The position numbers were made by a program, and so were the translations under genes. This document shows positions 1,187-13,485 of a stretch of DNA of 32,000 nt, piece after piece. The notes beneath the pieces are model-generated. The model saw only the letters and a program-made list of their open reading frames with translations, was not told where the DNA came from and searched no databases. Source of the DNA: Coprobacillaceae bacterium (GTDB lineage: Bacteria > Bacillota_I > Bacilli_A > Erysipelotrichales > Coprobacillaceae); contig OY776328.1 of NCBI GenBank assembly GCA_963675515.1, positions 2,130,001 to 2,162,000 of the forward strand, read 5' to 3'. Within the stretch, counting starts at the first letter, position 1, and each line of letters starts with the position of its first letter.

Positions 1187-3871
<2,685 letters not shown>

Positions 3872-4965: not shown

Positions 4966-5003
4966 TTGATAAATTTCTCAATCAATGTCAAAAGTTATTT
5001 ACA

Positions 5004-5050
5004 TTGACTTTTAATGGTGATACACTGATTATGTAAAAAGTATTTTACAT
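5004..5050 (+). promoter_or_regulatory. Putative promoter plus palindromic operator of the XRE module
   Basis: TTGACT (5004-5009), 17 nt, GATTAT (5027-5032). A perfect inverted repeat ATGTAAAA-agta-TTTTACAT (5031-5050) overlaps the -10. One more TTTACAT half-site lies at 4997-5003. Confidence 0.35.
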
Positions 5051-5070
5051 ATTTAGAAAGAGGAAACACT

Positions 5071-5370
5071 ATGAAAAAAATGGATGAAATGGAATTAACA
5101 CACACATTAAAAGCAATTAAAATCGTATATTTGTATTCAATTATTTTTGAATTTATATATTGGACTGTTGAATGCATAATTTCCAATGAGATAAAATCTT
5201 CAGGCATGTTTTTATTACTTATCAGTCAAAACATTGTCTTCCATCTGGCTAGATATTACTATAAAATTAAAGTTGATGATCCCGAAGGCAAGCAAGGCAT
5301 CAAAGTATCCGGCTTTTCATTGCTAATTTGCATAGTAGCTGGATTAATTATTTACTTAATATCGAATTAG
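5071..5370 (+). CDS. Small membrane protein (99 aa, 3 predicted TM segments), unknown function
   Basis: ORF with an AGAGGAAA RBS 7 nt upstream and hydrophobic segments (IKIVYLYSIIFEFIYW, MFLLLISQNIVF, FSLLICIVAGLIIYLI). It is the first gene of a three-gene module with the XRE regulator. Confidence 0.55.
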   Translation: MKKMDEMELTHTLKAIKIVYLYSIIFEFIYWTVECIISNEIKSSGMFLLLISQNIVFHLARYYYKIKVDDPEGKQGIKVSGFSLLICIVAGLIIYLISN

Positions 5371-5429
5371 AGGAGGCCTTATGTCAATTATTTCCATGTA
5401 AGTCCAACATGGTAATTTGGCATTTAATT

Positions 5430-5639
5430 ATGAAAAATAATATTAGAGAATTAAGGAAAGAAAAAGGTATTTCACAAGAGATATTGTCACAAATGTGCAA
5501 CGTATCAAGACAAACAATAAACGCAATCGAAAACAACAAATATGATCCCACATTATCATTAGCGTTTCAATTAGCGAAGGTATTGGAAGTTACTGTAGAT
5601 GTTTTATTCATTCATGATGAGGACCAAAAAGATGAGTAA
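5430..5639 (+). CDS. XRE/Cro-CI family HTH transcriptional regulator (COG1476-like, 69 aa)
   Basis: MKNNIRELRKEKGISQEILSQMCNVSRQTINAIENNKYDPTLSLAFQLAKVLEVTVDVLFIHDED is the canonical short XRE HTH. I start it at the internal ATG 5430 rather than the ORF-track start 5328. Confidence 0.85.
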   Translation: MKNNIRELRKEKGISQEILSQMCNVSRQTINAIENNKYDPTLSLAFQLAKVLEVTVDVLFIHDEDQKDE

Positions 5640-5892
5640 ACGAGATATTATTGAAATATGGAAGAATTCGTACTTAGTAAATAATGATGAAAGAGGCAAA
5701 CAAATCAAGCATACAGCTGCCTGGAAATCATCGAAGAAACTAGATATTATATTATTTATTTCTTTATTTGGCTTTGCGTTTTTTCAACCCCAAGAACTGC
5801 ATGTGATATTGACTATAGCTTTCCTTGCAATTATCAAAACGAGTATAGAAATATACTACCGGGTGATTTACTCTAATGTTGATATTCAATAA
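5632..5892 (+). CDS. Small membrane protein (86 aa, 2 TM), unknown function
   Basis: ATG at 5632 overlaps the XRE stop by 8 nt (translational coupling). Hydrophobic segments: LDIILFISLFGFAFF and VILTIAFLAIIKTSI. Confidence 0.55.
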   Translation: MSKRDIIEIWKNSYLVNNDERGKQIKHTAAWKSSKKLDIILFISLFGFAFFQPQELHVILTIAFLAIIKTSIEIYYRVIYSNVDIQ

Positions 5893-6030
5893 TATCAGAC
5901 GCAAATTCACTGAAAATCAACTCCATCGCTTTCTTATTGCAAAGATGAAACTAGTTTATTATTGCTTATGATAAAAAAAGTGACTCTATTCATGCTCAAA
6001 AATAGAGCTAGATAGAGTCACGGATATTTG

Positions 6031-6057
6031 AAACGGCTTTAAATGGCCGTTTTTTTA
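6031..6057 (+). terminator. Rho-independent terminator between the XRE module and ssrA
   Basis: AAACGGC-tttaaat-GCCGTTT hairpin followed by a T-run (6050-6057). A second 10-bp inverted repeat GTGACTCTAT...ATAGAGTCAC lies at 5979-6020. Confidence 0.5.
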
Positions 6058-6061
6058 CTAT

Positions 6062-6410
6062 TGGTGGAGGTGAGGGGAATCGAACCCCTGTCCAAAGACT
6101 GCTCCTCCAAAGCGTCTACAGCTTAGTCAATTGAGAGGATTTAACCGGGCTAAAACCAACTGACAAGTGTTCACCAGGCGATCTCTGAGGTTTTCGAGAT
6201 CAATGTTCGAGCACCATTGATCCTTATCCTGTTGGTTATTGGACCAGTAAGCCTACGACAGGAACGTAAACTCGTGGTGCTTTCAGTCTATATTGACTAT
6301 GCGAAAGCTAAAGATTGATTTCTGTTTCCAGTTATTTGTTTGTGCACTTAACGTATGCCGACGGCTGCAACTAAGGTCAAACTAGCCCCTGTCGAATCCA
6401 GGACACCCCC
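6062..6410 (-). ncRNA. ssrA: tmRNA (SsrA)
   Basis: Minus strand starts GGGGGTGTCCTGGATTCGACAGGGGC and ends GGGGTTCGATTCCCCTCACCTCCACCA, the tRNA-Ala-like acceptor/T-arm with CCA. The internal tag ORF is GGA AAC AGA AAT CAA TCT TTA GCT TTC GCA TAG (6329->6297). It lies 1 nt downstream of smpB. Confidence 0.93.
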
Positions 6411-6411
6411 G

Positions 6412-6858
6412 TTAGTAATTCTTTAATGCTTTTTCTATTTCTCGTTTAGCATCACGAGCTTTCAAGTCCTCACGCTTGTCGTAAAGTTTCTTACCTTTGG
6501 CTATCCCGATTTCCAGTTTTGCCTTCGAAGAATCACCGAAGTAAAGTTTGGTGGCAACCACAGTCAGTCCGCCTTCTTTAAGCTTGGTTTCGATCTTCTT
6601 GATCTCTTTACGGTGAAGCAAGAGTTTTCTTGTTCTTGTCGGTTCGTGATTGAAAATATTACCCATTTCATAAGGAGAGATATGCATGTTGACGATCTCG
6701 ACTTCATTGTTTTTTATGCGCACGTAGCTGTCTTTCAAGTTGACATTGCCTAGCCGGACCGATTTAATTTCCGTCCCTTTAAGTTCAATGCCAGCCTCAA
6801 AAGTATCAAGAATAAAATAATCATGATAAGCTTTTTTGTTGTTCGAAATAATCTTCAT
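6412..6858 (-). CDS. smpB: SsrA-binding protein SmpB
   Basis: [35 protein letters not shown]...[11 protein letters not shown]...GKKLYDKRE is canonical SmpB. ATG at 6858 with a GGAGG RBS is preferred over the TTG at 6876 in the ORF track. Confidence 0.95.
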
Positions 6859-6912
6859 CCATATCACCTCCTTCAATGCGTATACTATATTGTAGCTTAA
6901 TTAATCAAATTG

Positions 6913-9216
6913 TCAAGTCTTGTCAGGTTTATTTCCTGAACTTTTTCTTTTCCGGTTCGAGCTCTTGGTTGAGCTGCCTTTGGCGGGAGCACCTTTGCCT
7001 TTATGGCGGCTTCTAGTTTTGAAGTTGTCCGGTTTCGGTTTTTTCTTGCCGAACTCTTCCTTGCCTTTATGCTGTTTCTGTGAGCTTGGGTTGACGCGGC
7101 GTTTCTTGTTCGATTTGGTCACCAGTTCGAAGTCGATCCTTTTCTCGGCTTTCGATGCCGATTTGAGTTTGACTTTGACCTTCTGCCCCATGCCATAGAC
7201 ACTACCGGTATGGCGACCCAGGTAGCGGAGCTTCACTTCATCATAGAAGTAGTAGTCGTCAACCATGTCGACCACATGGACCAGCCCTTCGATTGTGTTT
7301 TCCAGTTCGACGAACATTCCGAAGTTCGTGACCGAGGAAATGACACCATCGAACACCTGCCCGACCTTCGCTTCCATGAATTCGGCTTTTTTCATATCCT
7401 CGACTTCACGTTCGATGTCGATTGCCAGCCGTTCATTGTCGCTCGATTTAAGTGCCAGGTCCGGAATGACCGATTCATAGTGGCGGATTGTTTTCATATC
7501 CATCCGTTTTTCAAACAGGTAAGTGCGGATCAGCCGATGCACAAGCAAATCCGGATAACGGCGGATTGGTGAAGTGAAGTGGGTATAGAAATCAGCAGCC
7601 AGACCGAAATGGCCCAGACAGCTCTGGTCATAACGGGCCTTGGCCATGGAACGGAGCATCAATGTCGCGATGACCTGATGTTCATCCTTGCCCCTGCTGT
7701 CCTCGATAATGGCCGCCAGCTGGTTTGGATACATGTCATCCAGCGAACCATGAGGCCGGTAGCCAAAGGCCGAAGCGATCGAGAAGAATTTAACCAGCTT
7801 CTTGACATCAGGATGTTCATGGACCCGGTAAATGAACGGCACTTCCATCCAGTGGAACCGTTGGGCGATTGTCTCGTTGGCCACGAGCATGAATTCTTCA
7901 ATCATCCGCTCGCTGATACCTCTTGTCCGGACCACGATATCGATCGGGAAGCCGGTCTCATTGACAACAACTTTGCTTTCATCAATGTCGAAGTCAATCG
8001 AACCGCGGCGGTCCCGGAACTTCCGGCGGATTGCCGCCAGGTCTTCCATCTGGTAGAACATCTCGAGCACATCATGATATTCGCTCATCAACTGGGTGTC
8101 CCCGGCCAGAATCTTGTTGACATTATTGTAGGTCATCCGATGGGTCGACTTGATGATTGACGGGTGGATCTCGCTGCGAAGCACATCCCCCTTATGGTCG
8201 ATCTCCATAAAGCAGGAAATCGTCAACCGGTCCACCTGAGGATTGAGGGAACAGATCCCGTTGGAAAGCTTGTGGGGGAGCATCGGAATAACCCGGTCAA
8301 CCAGGTAGATCGAAGTACCACGCTCCACCGCTTCAACGTCCAGGGGACTGTCTTCAGTCACGTAATGGGAAACATCGGCGATATGGACACCCAGATAGTA
8401 ATTGCCATTAGGCAGTTTTTCCAGTGATATCGCATCATCCAGGTCCATCGCATCGTCACCGTCGATGGTAACGATAGTCATGTCGGTCAGATCAAGCCGG
8501 CCTTCATGTTCGGATCTGATAACCTGATCAGGGATATTCTCGATCTGGTCGAACACCGCTTTGGGAAATTCAATGTCCACCCCGTGGTCATAGACGATCG
8601 AGAGGATGTCGATCCCTGGATCGGTGGCATGGCCCAGGATCTTGACGATATCGCCTTTTAGCGGCAGCTTGTAGACTTTGATCTCGACGACAACCTTGTG
8701 ACCCGGCATCGCCCCATGGGCATGGGCCGCATCGACATAGATCTTTTCCTTGAACCTACTGTCGTCGCATTCGACATAAAGATGGTTATGGCTGTTTTTC
8801 TTGACCAGACCGACAACTTTCTTGCGGCCCCGTTCGATTACTCCCACAACAACCCCTTCAGGACGGCTTGCCCCATGAGGTGTCGTCAGCTTGATCAGGA
8901 CCACGTCCTTGTCGAAGGCATCCTTGATGTTGGACTTGTCGATAAAGACATCCTTCTCATCTTCGCCGATCTTGACAAAGCCAAAGCCGCGTTCATGGAC
9001 CGACAGGGTTCCTAAACGCATGTCGAGCTGTTCGATCAGGAAATACTGGTTGAACTTGTTGCGGTAGATCTTCCCAGCCAGTTCCAGTTCGTTCAATGCC
9101 TTCAACAATTCGTTGTTGTTGGCGCCCTTGTCGACCTTGAAGCTTGTCGCAATCTGGTCGATGGTGCGGAGCAGATTGTTTTCATCTTTCAAATATTCTA
9201 AAATTTTCTCTTTCAT
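6913..9216 (-). CDS. rnr: Ribonuclease R
   Basis: 767 aa. It has an RNB catalytic region (TIDGDDAMDLDDAIS, HIADVSHYV, FTSPIRRYPDL), a C-terminal S1 domain (GVISSVTNFGMFVEL) and a Lys-rich tail. The secG-rnr-smpB-ssrA order is conserved in Bacillota. Confidence 0.95.
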   Translation of the reverse strand: MKEKILEYLKDENNLLRTIDQIATSFKVDKGANNNELLKALNELELAGKIYRNKFNQYFLIEQLDMRLGTLSVHERGFGFVKIGEDEKDVFIDKSNIKDAFDKDVVLIKLTTPHGASRPEGVVVGVIERGRKKVVGLVKKNSHNHLYVECDDSRFKEKIYVDAAHAHGAMPGHKVVVEIKVYKLPLKGDIVKILGHATDPGIDILSIVYDHGVDIEFPKAVFDQIENIPDQVIRSEHEGRLDLTDMTIVTIDGDDAMDLDDAISLEKLPNGNYYLGVHIADVSHYVTEDSPLDVEAVERGTSIYLVDRVIPMLPHKLSNGICSLNPQVDRLTISCFMEIDHKGDVLRSEIHPSIIKSTHRMTYNNVNKILAGDTQLMSEYHDVLEMFYQMEDLAAIRRKFRDRRGSIDFDIDESKVVVNETGFPIDIVVRTRGISERMIEEFMLVANETIAQRFHWMEVPFIYRVHEHPDVKKLVKFFSIASAFGYRPHGSLDDMYPNQLAAIIEDSRGKDEHQVIATLMLRSMAKARYDQSCLGHFGLAADFYTHFTSPIRRYPDLLVHRLIRTYLFEKRMDMKTIRHYESVIPDLALKSSDNERLAIDIEREVEDMKKAEFMEAKVGQVFDGVISSVTNFGMFVELENTIEGLVHVVDMVDDYYFYDEVKLRYLGRHTGSVYGMGQKVKVKLKSASKAEKRIDFELVTKSNKKRRVNPSSQKQHKGKEEFGKKKPKPDNFKTRSRHKGKGAPAKGSSTKSSNRKRKSSGNKPDKT

Positions 9217-10203: not shown

Positions 10204-11301
10204 ATGCACAAATTAGGTATTTCAGTTTACCCCGACAAGAGCGATTTAGATGAAGTCTATGCCTATGTCAAAAGAGCCAGCGAACTTGGCTACACCCGTA
10301 TCTTCACTTGCTTTCTATCAGTAGACAAACAGACCAGATCAGAATATTTCAAGGTTTTCAAGAACTTCAGCCAATACTGCCACGAATTAGGTTTCGAACT
10401 GGCTGTCGATACCAACCCTGAAATCTTCGCCGAGATCGGAGCTACCCCTACCAACCTGCAGCCTTTAATCGACCTTGGTGTCGACATCATCCGGCTCGAT
10501 GGCGATTTTTCCCTGCAGGACAATATCCTTATTTCCCGCAACCAGGACAACATCAAGATCGAATTCAATGCCAGCATGAATGCCGGCCTGGACAACATGA
10601 TTGCCTCAGGTGGCAACCGTGATGCCATCCAGGTATGCCACAACTTCTATCCTGAACGCTACACCGGTTTGGACCTGCAGCTCTATCAGGATCTCAACCA
10701 GAAATGGAAGGACCTCAACCTGGTGACGGCAGCCTTCGTCTCTTCGAACAATGAAAACACCATCGGCCCATGGCAGGTGTTCTGTGGTTTGCCTAGCGTG
10801 GAAATCCACCGCGGCTTGCCAATCGACCTGCAGGCGCGTCATCTTATTGCCCTGGGACAGATTGATGACATCCTGATCGGGAACTATCCCGCAACCGACG
10901 AGGAACTGGTGGCCCTTTCCAAAGTCAACTGGCAATACCTGGAATTCAAGGTTGACCTTGAAGAAGGTGCAAGCGACCTGGAAAAGGAAATCCTGCTTGA
11001 TTTCTTCCCACATATGGACCGGCCTGACTATTCAAGCTTCATGATCCGCTCAAGCTACCCACGGATCAAATACAAAGGAAAGGAAATTCCCCACCGTCCG
11101 GTTGAAAAGGAATACTTCGAACCTGGGGACATCGTCATTGTCAACGACAACCTGGCCCACTATCGGGGCGAACTGCAAATCGTACTCGACTATATCAAGA
11201 ACGATGGGGAACGCAACCTGGTGGCAACCATACCGTCTGAGGAAATGGCCCTGGTCGAAGCCTTCAAACCAGGCATCTACTTCTACTTCACCAAAAAATA
11301 G
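10204..11301 (+). CDS. mupG: DUF871 / MupG-like 6-phospho-N-acetylmuramidase family protein
   Basis: N-terminus MHKLGISVYPDKS...YVKRASELGYTRIFTCFLSV and length (365 aa) match the DUF871 family as I recall it. AAGGAG RBS. Confidence 0.65.
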   Translation: MHKLGISVYPDKSDLDEVYAYVKRASELGYTRIFTCFLSVDKQTRSEYFKVFKNFSQYCHELGFELAVDTNPEIFAEIGATPTNLQPLIDLGVDIIRLDGDFSLQDNILISRNQDNIKIEFNASMNAGLDNMIASGGNRDAIQVCHNFYPERYTGLDLQLYQDLNQKWKDLNLVTAAFVSSNNENTIGPWQVFCGLPSVEIHRGLPIDLQARHLIALGQIDDILIGNYPATDEELVALSKVNWQYLEFKVDLEEGASDLEKEILLDFFPHMDRPDYSSFMIRSSYPRIKYKGKEIPHRPVEKEYFEPGDIVIVNDNLAHYRGELQIVLDYIKNDGERNLVATIPSEEMALVEAFKPGIYFYFTKK

Positions 11302-11305
11302 TTTA

Positions 11306-11330
11306 AAGGAACCCTCCCGGGTTCCTTTTC
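11306..11330. terminator. Bidirectional terminator hairpin (copy A)
   Basis: AAAGGAACCC-tccc-GGGTTCCTTTT directly after the mupG-like stop. An identical hairpin recurs at 12677-12698. Confidence 0.7.
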
Positions 11331-11433
11331 ATATTAGAAAAATTTGTTCAATGCCTTGAGCAAACCGCCATCCATGAAGTCATCGGTCACGTAGTCGGCG
11401 ATATGTTTGAGCTCATCGTCATCATTACCTATT
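11307..11433. repeat. Direct repeat copy A (terminator plus relic 3' end of the HAD gene)
   Basis: Aligns base-for-base with 12677-12802. There is one 1-nt indel and, by eye, roughly 85 percent identity. Confidence 0.85.
11334..11429 (-). pseudogene. Relic 3' end (31 codons plus stop) of a Cof-type HAD hydrolase
   Basis: Minus-strand translation is GNDDDELKHIADYVTDDFMDGGLLKALNKFF*. The live gene's C-terminus is GNGVDELKQIADYVTDDFMDDGLLKALNKFF*. Confidence 0.85.
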
Positions 11434-11436
11434 TCA

Positions 11437-12468
11437 CTAGTTGTGATTTTGCGCGTTAATTTGTTGAATAAGCACACTTCTCAGCAAATCATCCAACAAA
11501 CAACAAATATTTACCAATATCCAGCCTAGTCGACTGTGTTCACTATAATCAAACAAAAAATCTTTCATAAAAATTTGGGCGTATTCTTCTGCCTTTTTAT
11601 TGAAACCTTCGAAATCACCGTGCCCGATTTTATTTCTCATTTGTCTTAATAGTTTAGCTAATTTTACGGTTCTATTACCATATTCACTGTTCAGGTAAGG
11701 AATCAGAAGAGTGTCAATTTCGTTCGTGCCTTGCTTTCTGGTTAGTAATACCAATTCAAGCAAAGTAAATGTTCTCATATAGTGATTGTGGTTGTAACAA
11801 TTATCCTTGTAAATAGCGTTAATAATATAATCTAACCTATTATAATCATTAGGAGAATTTAATATGCAGTCTATACGTGAACCCATTTCTTTTAGTTCTT
11901 TAATATAATAATCCTTTGAAATTTGCTTCTCAAATTCGGAATGGATATTAAAACTTAGTTGAGATAATATTCGAGTATTTGCAAATGGTTCCATATTCGA
12001 AGAATATATACATCGTACAGATATGCCATTTTTTACATTATGGTTAACAAAGTTACCAAAATATATTAATTTTTCGGCGTAATCTTCTTCACAACAGCGG
12101 CCATCAAAACAATTATTTGTCCAGTCGAAGAACGGCATATCATTGTATTCATAGTCAAAAAACATGCAAACGAGATTATCCACGAGATATTGCAGACACG
12201 AATCGATAGAATCCAAGTCAGATGTTGAGAATCCATTCAGTATACTTTGAACAATATCCTTGAGGTATTGGAACGAATATTCCGTTCGATATGTTTTCCC
12301 ATGTCTTATAAGATCATCTTCGATATCCATTTTTTGTTGGCTAATTTCAAGTAACATATCTAGTTTAAGATCATTCTTCCAATCATCAGGAATATTTGAA
12401 ATGTATACCTTTAATTTATCAGAAATTAGCGTTTTATCTATTTTTCCAAAAACGTCTATAACAACCAA
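11437..12468 (-). CDS. Hypothetical 343-aa protein with C-terminal HEPN-like R-x4-H motif (candidate stand-alone Abi/defence RNase)
   Basis: Long uninterrupted ORF in strongly AT-rich DNA. TTG start at 12468, 8 nt after a GGAGG RBS. The C-terminal helical region FTLLELVLL...LAKLLRQMRNKIGHGDFEGF carries R278-x4-H283 (codons 11637-11620). The N-terminal ~230 aa is not recognisable. Confidence 0.7.
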   Translation of the reverse strand: MVVIDVFGKIDKTLISDKLKVYISNIPDDWKNDLKLDMLLEISQQKMDIEDDLIRHGKTYRTEYSFQYLKDIVQSILNGFSTSDLDSIDSCLQYLVDNLVCMFFDYEYNDMPFFDWTNNCFDGRCCEEDYAEKLIYFGNFVNHNVKNGISVRCIYSSNMEPFANTRILSQLSFNIHSEFEKQISKDYYIKELKEMGSRIDCILNSPNDYNRLDYIINAIYKDNCYNHNHYMRTFTLLELVLLTRKQGTNEIDTLLIPYLNSEYGNRTVKLAKLLRQMRNKIGHGDFEGFNKKAEEYAQIFMKDFLFDYSEHSRLGWILVNICCLLDDLLRSVLIQQINAQNHN

Positions 12469-12676
12469 TTCATCATCCTCCAGTTAAGTCATAAATAGAT
12501 ATGTTATTTACAAATATCAATTACAAATCATTTCAGCAAAGTGTTGGAATATAATAACTAAACGAGTGGCAACAAACGGCAACTAGATAAAATCATTATG
12601 TTAAAATCATTATGCTCATCGCATCAAATATAAAAACCAAATTTGTCTTTGAAATATTTCAAAGTTCAGAAACCGA

Positions 12677-12698
12677 AGGAACCCTCCCGGGTTCCTTT
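12677..12698. terminator. Terminator hairpin (copy B) downstream of the HAD gene
   Basis: AAGGAACCC-tccc-GGGTTCCTT, 4 nt from the HAD stop codon. Confidence 0.65.
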
Positions 12699-12802
12699 TA
12701 TGTTAGAAAAATTTGTTCAATGCCTTGAGCAGGCCGTCGTCCATGAAATCATCAGTCACATAGTCGGCGATCTGTTTTAGTTCATCGACACCGTTACCCA
12801 TG
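12677..12802. repeat. Direct repeat copy B (terminator plus functional 3' end of the HAD gene)
   Basis: Partner of 11307-11433. The offset is 1370/1369 bp. Confidence 0.85.
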
Positions 12803-13485
12803 ACCACGCCACAGCCAACCGCCTTGATCATCTCGATATCATTGTGACCGTCGCCAAAGGCGAAGCTGTCGCTGATTTCCAGATCATAGTAAGCCAGGGT
12901 CTTCTCGATTCCCTGGGCCTTGGTGATGTCCTTGGAGTACACCTCGAAAGCATTGATGGTGCCGTTGTAATCATAGTTGAATTTGCCTTCGATCAGCGAA
13001 ATGAACTCATCGGCCAGTTGGGCCGGCAGGGAAATCTCCATCTTGATGATCTTGTGGTAGACCGCCTTGTCGAACTCGCTGACTATATGGTCTTCCTTGA
13101 TATTGCATCGCTGGTAGAATTCCCACAGGTTCGTGAACTCGGCTTTGAGGTAGCCGTACTTGTTGTCCTGGAGGATATATTCGACTTGATGGCTTTCTAG
13201 ATAGTTTACCACTTCCTCGACATTTTCATGTCCCAGGTAGTTCTCGAAAATCGATTTCCCTTCGACCATGACATGCGACCCGTTGGCCATGACAAAGCCG
13301 TCGAAGTCTAGCGACGTGAGATATTCATTCACGAAGGCGTATGGCCGCCCGGTGGCGATGAAGAGGTGGTTACCCTTTTCCTTGATCTCACTTAGCTTCT
13401 CTATAACCGTTGGGGGAATCTTATAGACTCCCTTGTCGTTCTGGACCAGGGTCCCGTCAACATCGAAAAACAATACTTTACTCAT
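12703..13485 (-). CDS. Cof-type HAD-IIB family hydrolase (sugar-phosphate phosphatase-like)
   Basis: [14 protein letters not shown] (motif I DxDGT), ATGRP (motif II) and FGDGHNDIEM (motif IV). 260 aa. Confidence 0.9.
   Translation of the reverse strand: MSKVLFFDVDGTLVQNDKGVYKIPPTVIEKLSEIKEKGNHLFIATGRPYAFVNEYLTSLDFDGFVMANGSHVMVEGKSIFENYLGHENVEEVVNYLESHQVEYILQDNKYGYLKAEFTNLWEFYQRCNIKEDHIVSEFDKAVYHKIIKMEISLPAQLADEFISLIEGKFNYDYNGTINAFEVYSKDITKAQGIEKTLAYYDLEISDSFAFGDGHNDIEMIKAVGCGVVMGNGVDELKQIADYVTDDFMDDGLLKALNKFF

Follow-up and report, generated by a model that had tools for sequence, protein, structure and literature searches.

ApeA mediates abortive infection as a single protein, in which a ligand in the pocket between the N-terminal and HEPN domains activates cleavage of the tRNA anticodon loop (10.64898/2026.01.26.701840). 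Lactococcal HEPN proteins of the abortive infection (Abi) type are similarly built, with an alpha+beta N-terminal domain that is variable, followed by a C-terminal HEPN domain (PMC3710099). Defence genes also form part of the variable, AT-rich cargo found between conserved core flanks in the Pseudomonas aeruginosa hotspots cDHS1/2 and the Escherichia coli hotspot #37; some such hotspots show 'no identifiable modes of mobilization', and homologous recombination between the flanks has been proposed (PMC10250203, PMC10121019). The locus described here lies in a 32,000-nt stretch of a Coprobacillaceae bacterium (assembly GCA_963675515.1, contig OY776328.1, positions 2,130,001 to 2,162,000 of the forward strand; hereafter the window), in which a cassette of 1.24 kb between the core genes mupG and a Cof-type HAD phosphatase gene contains a single open reading frame (ORF) of 343 amino acids (aa) on the minus strand (11437-12468, TTG start). 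We favour, at a probability of roughly 0.55, the reading that this ORF encodes a stand-alone HEPN-type effector of a previously undescribed family, with a defence or abortive-infection mechanism, that travels as cargo.

A putative HEPN-type active site

Proteins of the HEPN superfamily share the signature Rx4-6H, in which the R is directly followed by a polar residue, most often N, D or H, and this motif is located where helix 3 of a four-helix bundle ends and passes into the loop before helix 4, an insert being present between helices 2 and 3 (PMC3710099). The window protein agrees with this definition in both respects. Among 132 full-length family members, with identities down to ~20%, R278 is present in 130, the polar N279 in 122, K280 in 125, H283 in 131 and G284 in 130; the codons for R278-N279-K280-I281-G282-H283, as read from the sequence, occupy 11620-11637 on the minus strand. 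An AlphaFold2 model of the full-length protein (predicted local distance difference test score, pLDDT, 87.4; predicted template modelling score, pTM, 0.85) has an alpha/beta fold over residues 1-185 (11914-12468) and then an all-alpha C-terminal half (residues 186-343; 11440-11913), which when modelled alone reached a pLDDT of 93.5. The all-alpha part is therefore predicted to begin near residue 185, and not at ~230 where the original prediction had placed it. Helices 206-219, 227-241, 248-282 and 286-300 would form the HEPN core and, in both models, the 35-residue helix 248-282 closes with R278-N279 while H283-G284 open the loop to helix 286-300, which is the position of the motif in HEPN proteins. 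The C-terminal half additionally contains a conserved FDYSEYSR loop and a last helix at 313-342.

Conservation is not confined to the motif. On the same counts N25 (129), E127 (129), G196 (126), D200 (130), D307 (129), E310 (130) and W316 (126) are near-invariant, and the N-terminal domain contains the conserved block D105..D110-M-P-F-F-D-W116..N119-C-F-D-G-R124-x-C126-E127-E-D129-Y130. The original prediction had seen a Cys-rich sensor in this block, which was an overstatement: C126 alone of the 'CC' pair is conserved (120 of 132) and C125 is not. None of the invariant residues has been lost from the window copy, which is intact.

Profile comparisons point, though weakly, in the same direction as the motif. 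The window protein itself matched pEK499_p136 (PF18736) at 16.4 bits, where the cut-off is 26.6, and Ribonuc_2-5A/KEN at 13.9 bits, in both cases over the motif. With 34 members as queries against 24,736 models, 23 Pfam families were matched at E<0.1 and seven of these were HEPN-named, comprising Ribonuc_2-5A (nine members), pEK499_p136 (five), RiboL-PSP and Apea (two each), and Swt1, AbiU2 (E 0.044) and DUF4145 (one each), and all matches for which a position was available fell over the motif. The most distant members gave two further sub-threshold matches, to Apea and to an eighth HEPN model, MAE_28990. A reference profile for PF18736 was seeded with the 'HEPN family nuclease' of plasmid pEK499; in hhalign the C-terminal domain of the family aligned with it at a probability of 58% (E 9.7e-5) and the full-length family at 24%, the two motifs (LLRQMRNKIGHG versus LIHKMRNSVAHF) sharing the pattern hh-x-x-M/L-R-N-x-h-x-H. 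From the motif, the predicted structure and the profile comparisons together, a putative HEPN-type active site in the window protein is considered probable.

The family is small and closed. A word-indexed search detected 93 clusters, a HMMER scan of 1.84 billion representatives 136, and a search with a 67-member profile 139, all of 300-413 aa and with no other domain architecture; the family thus comprises ~140 clusters, from Firmicutes, and its N-terminal domain is family-specific. The genera represented among named members are Erysipelothrix, Enterococcus, Paraliobacillus, Heyndrickxia, Clostridium, Allobacillus and Listeria. In UniRef two members are termed 'Apea-like HEPN domain-containing protein' and the rest 'hypothetical'. 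The N-terminal domain had no match in Pfam, PHROGs or the PDB, sequence-profile searches of the PDB with two alignments returned noise only, and the 67-sequence profile search, examined for a bridge to annotated HEPN families, returned family members only. None of the 5027 models of PADLOC-DB v2.0.0 matched at E values up to 10.

Homologue contexts and known defence systems

Eight homologue loci were examined for their genomic context. A partner ORF was conserved in none of them, the gene always being solo, and no MNT nucleotidyltransferase antitoxin of the kind that defines HEPN-MNT toxin-antitoxin (TA) systems of type II/VII was adjacent; together with the presence of one ORF only in the window cassette, this upholds the description of the gene as stand-alone. 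In all eight loci the ORF is more AT-rich than its surroundings.

The subfamilies closest to the window protein, P0002 (64% identity; 491 member sequences) and P0015 (53%), occupy a fixed slot in Tn916-like integrative and conjugative elements (ICEs; loci L027-L029, L031 and L053). The slot is part of an accessory block that is flanked by the relaxase on one side and the conjugation genes on the other, the gene order being FtsK, Rep_trans, an AbiJ-like Abi_C protein, ArdA, the family gene, TcpE, a VirB4-like ATPase and NlpC/P60. The sole match in IMG/VR is likewise a Tn916-like ICE, filed as a viral contig, and not a phage, and no member was detected when 50,697 phage and 72,556 plasmid records were searched by tblastn.

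Outside ICEs, members are found beside defence genes. In Erysipelothrix anatis (locus L018, 6292-9026) a full-length DRT reverse transcriptase (RT) gene, RT_UG30, is located 86 nt upstream of the family gene on the same strand (PADLOC E 3.8e-202), and the vicinity contains a type II restriction enzyme (E 6.5e-99), a methylase, a RelA/SpoT-DndB-like pair and recombinases. This arrangement recalls the RT-HEPN pairing of AbiA. UG30 reverse transcriptases belong to a group predicted to be defensive (PMC9226505). At locus L023 the member is positioned between an upstream AbiD gene and a gene for a 1087-aa NTPase-like protein, and other members lie by a tyrosine integrase and an Mrr-type nuclease, by a serine recombinase where an integrated element ends, or among four transposases. 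The homologue neighbourhoods, which the original prediction had proposed to inspect for enrichment in defence genes, are hence defence and mobile-element contexts, and the distribution of homologues is as would be expected if the gene were accessory and served defence or conflict rather than housekeeping. We infer the defence activity of the family from this genomic context.

ApeA offers the best working model for the mechanism, and two family members bear an Apea-like name. However, Ec2ApeA is ~580 aa long and has three domains, its HEPN domain being C-terminal and its N-terminal region unrelated (10.64898/2026.01.26.701840), whereas the family protein has 343 aa and two domains, and its hosts are Firmicutes and ICEs. 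The best match to the Apea model PF18739 reached 17.8 bits against a cut-off of 24.4, two of the 34 members matching at E ~0.02, neither an ApeA N-terminal nor a Mid domain was detected with Pfam or PADLOC, and the ApeA model of PADLOC had no match. With AbiJ (Abi_C), AbiD/AbiF (Abi_2) and AbiU2 the family shares Firmicute hosts, the logic of single-gene abortive infection and the domain architecture, and some members directly adjoin AbiJ-like and AbiD genes. These are separate families that are merely co-located, and the neighbours do match their models while the family has no match to Abi_C PF14355, Abi_2 PF07751, AbiJ-NTD or the PADLOC models of AbiJ and AbiD; the AbiU2 match is that of a single member. 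The best relative at profile level is pEK499_p136, whose motif aligns with that of the family over ~30 columns, although PF18736 describes stand-alone HEPN proteins of ~160 aa from Proteobacteria. Judged by these profile comparisons, the family is not part of the ApeA, AbiJ, Abi_2 or pEK499_p136 families. It is credible that the window gene represents a new family within a well-known kind, the single-gene HEPN defence or Abi effectors with variable N-terminal domains.

The cassette and the mupG/HAD junction

The left core flank of the cassette is mupG (6-phospho-N-acetylmuramidase; 10204-11301, plus strand; Pfam MupG_N PF19200 E 1e-76, MupG_C PF05913 E 5e-30) and the right flank is the Cof-type HAD phosphatase gene (12703-13485, minus strand; Hydrolase_3 PF08282 E 3e-54). 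The cassette as a whole has a GC content of 0.309, compared to 0.467 in the remainder of the window, with windowed values of 0.27-0.35 over 11450-12650 and ~0.47-0.53 in the flanks, and GC at third codon positions is 0.30 in the ORF, 0.63 in mupG and 0.69 in the HAD gene. The ORF, with its stop codon at 11437-11439, is preceded by a GGAGG ribosome binding site at 12477-12481 (minus strand), 8 nt 5' of the TTG, and neighbouring ATGs are out of frame. Between the ORF and the HAD-proximal repeat is an AT-rich region of 207 nt (12469-12675), which contains a perfect 14-nt tandem repeat, TAAAATCATTATGT, in 1.9 copies (12588-12614) that could represent an operator or promoter element. A search of the cassette against Rfam gave no match, and no RNA antitoxin or riboswitch was seen. 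An imperfect inverted repeat of 35 nt (12331-12365 and 12493-12527, 71% complementary) has one arm in the 5' part of the ORF and the other in the upstream region, and is probably a chance occurrence in such AT-rich DNA. No recombinase is encoded in the cassette, which has a single ORF, and none is evident among the ORFs of at least 150 aa of neighbouring genes. What the original prediction had reported at the level of the sequence (the ORF, its TTG and GGAGG, the AT-richness, the repeats, the translation of the displaced copy, the flanks and the lack of a recombinase) is all confirmed.

The content of the junction differs among close relatives. A genome scan with MupG identified two, L001 (MupG 95% and HAD protein 93% identical to those of the window) and L002 (MupG 86%), and comparisons therefore extend to three close genomes including the window. 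In L001 the junction is occupied by 2.5 kb of cargo (5257-7738) with a GC content of 0.37 versus 0.47 elsewhere in the locus. It contains a gene for a 624-aa SLFN-group-3/DUF2075 helicase (Pfam E 3e-104), which in PADLOC matches AbiO and Nhi at E about 1e-16 (5e-17), and a gene for a 105-aa MazG-like protein; the pair may constitute a two-gene defence cassette. The L001 cargo is bracketed by a 31-nt duplicate of that genome's own version of the hairpin, extending through the HAD stop codon and 97% identical, and has no end sequences in common with the window cassette other than the hairpin. The L002 junction (7336-8255, plus strand) contains a glyoxalase/bleomycin-resistance-like gene and a 127-aa ORF without a Pfam match, and no repeat. 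In the more distant L012, L013 and L008, mupG and a convergent HAD-family (Cof-type) gene are 53-84 nt apart and have one hairpin in common, the HAD-family protein being only ~36-42% identical to that of the window. The gaps in L009, L010 and L016 hold conserved genes of housekeeping type (a secreted nuclease, a ribokinase-like gene) and are uninformative with respect to a hotspot. Exact look-ups of the window MupG, HAD and HEPN-like proteins returned no match.

The ancestral junction was most likely a convergent gene pair with a single bidirectional terminator. The comparison with relatives, for which the original prediction had called, thus bears out a varying junction that is empty in distant genomes, but close relatives provided neither a true empty site nor further cargoes, and a metagenome scan gave none above 65%. 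Horizontal acquisition of the cassette ORF, also part of the original prediction, is supported by its deviant composition, by the different cargo that close relatives have at the junction and by the empty junction of distant relatives.

The insert is bracketed by direct repeats, 11306-11432 (copy A) and 12676-12801 (copy B), which are 87% identical over 127 nt with one indel and contain the terminator hairpin and the last 31 HAD codons. The hairpin of copy A (11305-11328; a 10-pair stem, then a T-run) serves mupG and the HEPN-like gene, and is followed by a relic of the HAD coding end (11334-11429, minus strand) that translates as GNDDDELKHIADYVTDDFMDGGLLKALNKFF and a stop codon, whereas in copy B the hairpin (12676-12699), an exact 24-nt duplicate, serves the HAD gene, to whose functional 3' end it is joined. 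Exactly two occurrences of the 24-nt hairpin, AAGGAACCCTCCCGGGTTCCTTTT, are present in the window, where shuffled sequences predict none; a dispersed element of the repetitive extragenic palindrome (REP) type was rejected since the hairpin is present at the two boundaries only.

Direct repeats of a gene 3' end around foreign DNA are the usual topology of elements that target gene 3' ends, and the original prediction had accordingly proposed a site-specific element that replaced the HAD 3' end, with copy B as the replacement and copy A as the displaced original. This now appears improbable, and the roles of the copies reversed. Copy B, attached to the HAD gene, is on sequence comparison the resident HAD end, because its peptide is identical to the HAD C-terminus of L001, copy A having four amino-acid changes, because it matches L001 at 86% of nucleotides, as does the gene as a whole (85.6%), with no discontinuity at 12802, and because the excess of private changes, polarized against L001, is in copy A (10 versus 3 in copy B). 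The cassette encodes no integrase or recombinase, and in L001 just 31 nt are duplicated, reaching from the hairpin to the end of the stop codon, so that the hairpin, and not the HAD coding end, is indicated as the recombination site. A transposase target-site duplication was rejected as the origin of the repeats, as duplications of 125 nt and 31 nt are too long.

Nine of the 13 differences between the copies are at third codon positions, and the private changes of copy A comprise six synonymous and four non-synonymous ones, which weakly suggests that copy A evolved for a time within a functional HAD allele of another genome. With L002 as outgroup, six informative sites join A with B and four join A with the outgroup; given this mixed signal, the third-position bias, first taken as proof of a foreign origin of copy A, was downgraded to weakly favouring it. 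The differences are also unevenly distributed, with two in the proximal 57 nt (the hairpin and the last 29 coding nt) and 13 in the distal 67 nt (Fisher p = 0.011), a mosaic compatible with an older event that was followed by gene conversion or by selection acting on the terminator. The topology of the repeats would fit a circular intermediate that recombined at the hairpin in a single crossover, which could have been catalysed by a recombinase acting in trans or by homologous recombination.

With conserved flanks and cargo that differs among the three close genomes, the mupG/HAD junction constitutes a miniature core-gene-flanked hotspot. Like cDHS1/2 and hotspot #37 it combines conserved flanks with variable AT-rich cargo and has no identifiable mobilization genes, but it is tiny (0-2.5 kb, one or two genes), is located at a convergent terminator and not at a tRNA or tmRNA gene, and shows scars (a duplicated terminator with or without the HAD end) that would be unexpected from pure flank-mediated replacement. 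Cis-mobilizable elements (CIMEs) are att-flanked derivatives of ICEs or of integrative and mobilizable elements that target gene 3' ends, as described in the Streptococcus thermophilus ICESt1/ICESt3 literature. A short element without a recombinase of its own, flanked by direct repeats that include a gene 3' end and carrying ICE-related cargo in a Firmicute, resembles a CIME, although no cognate integrase or parent element was found and the repeats are not of equal length in the two occupied genomes (125 nt versus 31 nt).

Elsewhere in the window, a tmRNA gene (6062-6410, minus strand; tag peptide GNRNQSLAFA) is located downstream of an unannotated 154-aa ORF (6412-6876) and a 767-aa ORF (6913-9216), whose sequence suggests RNase R. 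For ~2.9 kb beyond the tmRNA 3' end (window position 3178 onward) there is no ORF of at least 150 aa, GC content is 0.30 at 5001-6000, and a fragment of a group II intron (D1-D4) is present at 3632-3809 on the minus strand. This region may be the decayed remains of an island at ssrA, a classic site of integration.

Proposed mechanism, alternatives and significance

The fold, RNase activity, sensing, defence role and mode of integration that we infer for the effector can be combined in a single proposal, its mechanism drawn by analogy with ApeA, AbiJ, AbiD/F and PrrC. The protein would consist of a family-specific alpha/beta N-terminal domain (~185 aa) and an all-alpha half carrying a HEPN-type Rx4H ribonuclease site, and dimerization through the helical domain would generate a composite RNase site. 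Because no antitoxin gene accompanies the effector gene, the protein would have to be auto-inhibited and inactive in healthy cells. A cue derived from infection, perceived at the N-terminal domain or in an interdomain pocket for which E127, D200, D307 and E310 are candidate residues, would switch it on, and metal-independent cutting of cellular RNA, for example at tRNA anticodon loops, would then stop growth and abort the propagation of the phage or mobile element. As cargo, the gene would travel in the accessory slot of Tn916-like ICEs and, in the window, in a minimal cassette at the bidirectional mupG/HAD terminator; the insertion would have duplicated the terminator, and all three genes would therefore stay terminated.

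A number of results weigh against this proposal. Foldseek searches of the PDB with the full-length and C-terminal models, a check for which the original prediction had called, returned nothing significant and no HEPN structure. No curated HEPN model was matched at threshold, the best scores being 16-21 bits against cut-offs of 23-27, the hhalign alignment is limited to 26-31 columns around the motif, and the window protein has no significant model in Pfam, NCBIfam, PADLOC or PHROGs, a result that at the same time makes it a genuinely new defence candidate. A consensus sigma-70 promoter was not found on the coding strand of 12469-12675, the L002 cargo includes a glyoxalase-like gene, such that the junction is not reserved for defence genes, and the ICE-borne members adjoin the anti-restriction gene ardA, making a role in anti-defence or in competition between elements possible. 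The claim of a HEPN effector made in the original prediction consequently stands for the motif, which is near-invariant and at the HEPN position, and lacks corroboration for the fold. It might be that the Rx4H motif is convergent or non-catalytic and that the protein, helical but unrelated in fold, binds nucleic acids or nucleotides, its defence context being the clutter of accessory DNA; every sequence match is sub-threshold and confined to the motif, no fold matches a HEPN structure, and the equal conservation of E127, D200, D307 and E310 would allow the active site to be elsewhere. We consider this unlikely, as the HEPN definition is matched exactly by an invariant R-N-x3-H-G located where a long helix ends, and HEPN-named models make up seven of the 23 matched families in a library of 24,736.

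The position immediately downstream of ardA in the P0002 and P0015 subfamilies, co-oriented with the conjugation genes, could instead mean that the protein serves the ICE, either in early anti-defence, as ArdA does, or in attack on competing elements, with the chromosomal copy a stranded remnant, and the 491 sequences of P0002 alone are in keeping with this. Yet the upstream neighbour in the ICE slot is AbiJ-like and hence of defence type, members outside ICEs adjoin DRT-UG30, AbiD and restriction enzymes in defence islands, and the window copy has kept all invariant residues where no ICE is present; a function of this kind therefore has a low probability. HEPN toxins are also common in TA systems (PMC3710099), and a toxin that stabilizes an island or ICE by addiction, restrained by an upstream small RNA or peptide or by an intramolecular domain, would be consistent with the 14-nt tandem repeat upstream of the ORF and with the occurrence of the gene at the edges of integrated elements. 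Such a role is very unlikely: neither a conserved partner ORF nor an MNT-type antitoxin was found in the eight contexts, Rfam had no match in the cassette, and DNA homology with the ICE-borne copies comprises only the ORF and 26 nt of the ribosome binding site region, ending at 12494, so that the upstream region is not conserved.

A further-reaching version of the defence-effector reading is tentative. It would see in the family a new single-gene anti-phage or anti-element protein with a new type of N-terminal infection sensor and an E127/D200/D307/E310 pocket outside the Rx4H site, and in the hairpin a docking site, recombinase-free or served by a recombinase in trans, at which cassettes of one or two genes are exchanged, the terminator being duplicated on each occasion.

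Defence proteins of the single-gene HEPN kind, in which the N-terminal domain varies, are well established, and the finding is in this respect no conceptual surprise. If confirmed, a compact effector family of ~340 aa with an unexplored sensor domain would join the immunity of Firmicutes and of the gut microbiome. The mupG/HAD locus is a very small and clean variable hotspot at a convergent terminator, and could help to explain how defence cassettes move without a recombinase of their own, a question left open by the hotspot literature. Its wide distribution on Tn916-like ICEs, which also move antibiotic resistance, means that the family could affect the outcome of phage therapy and the competition between elements in the gut.

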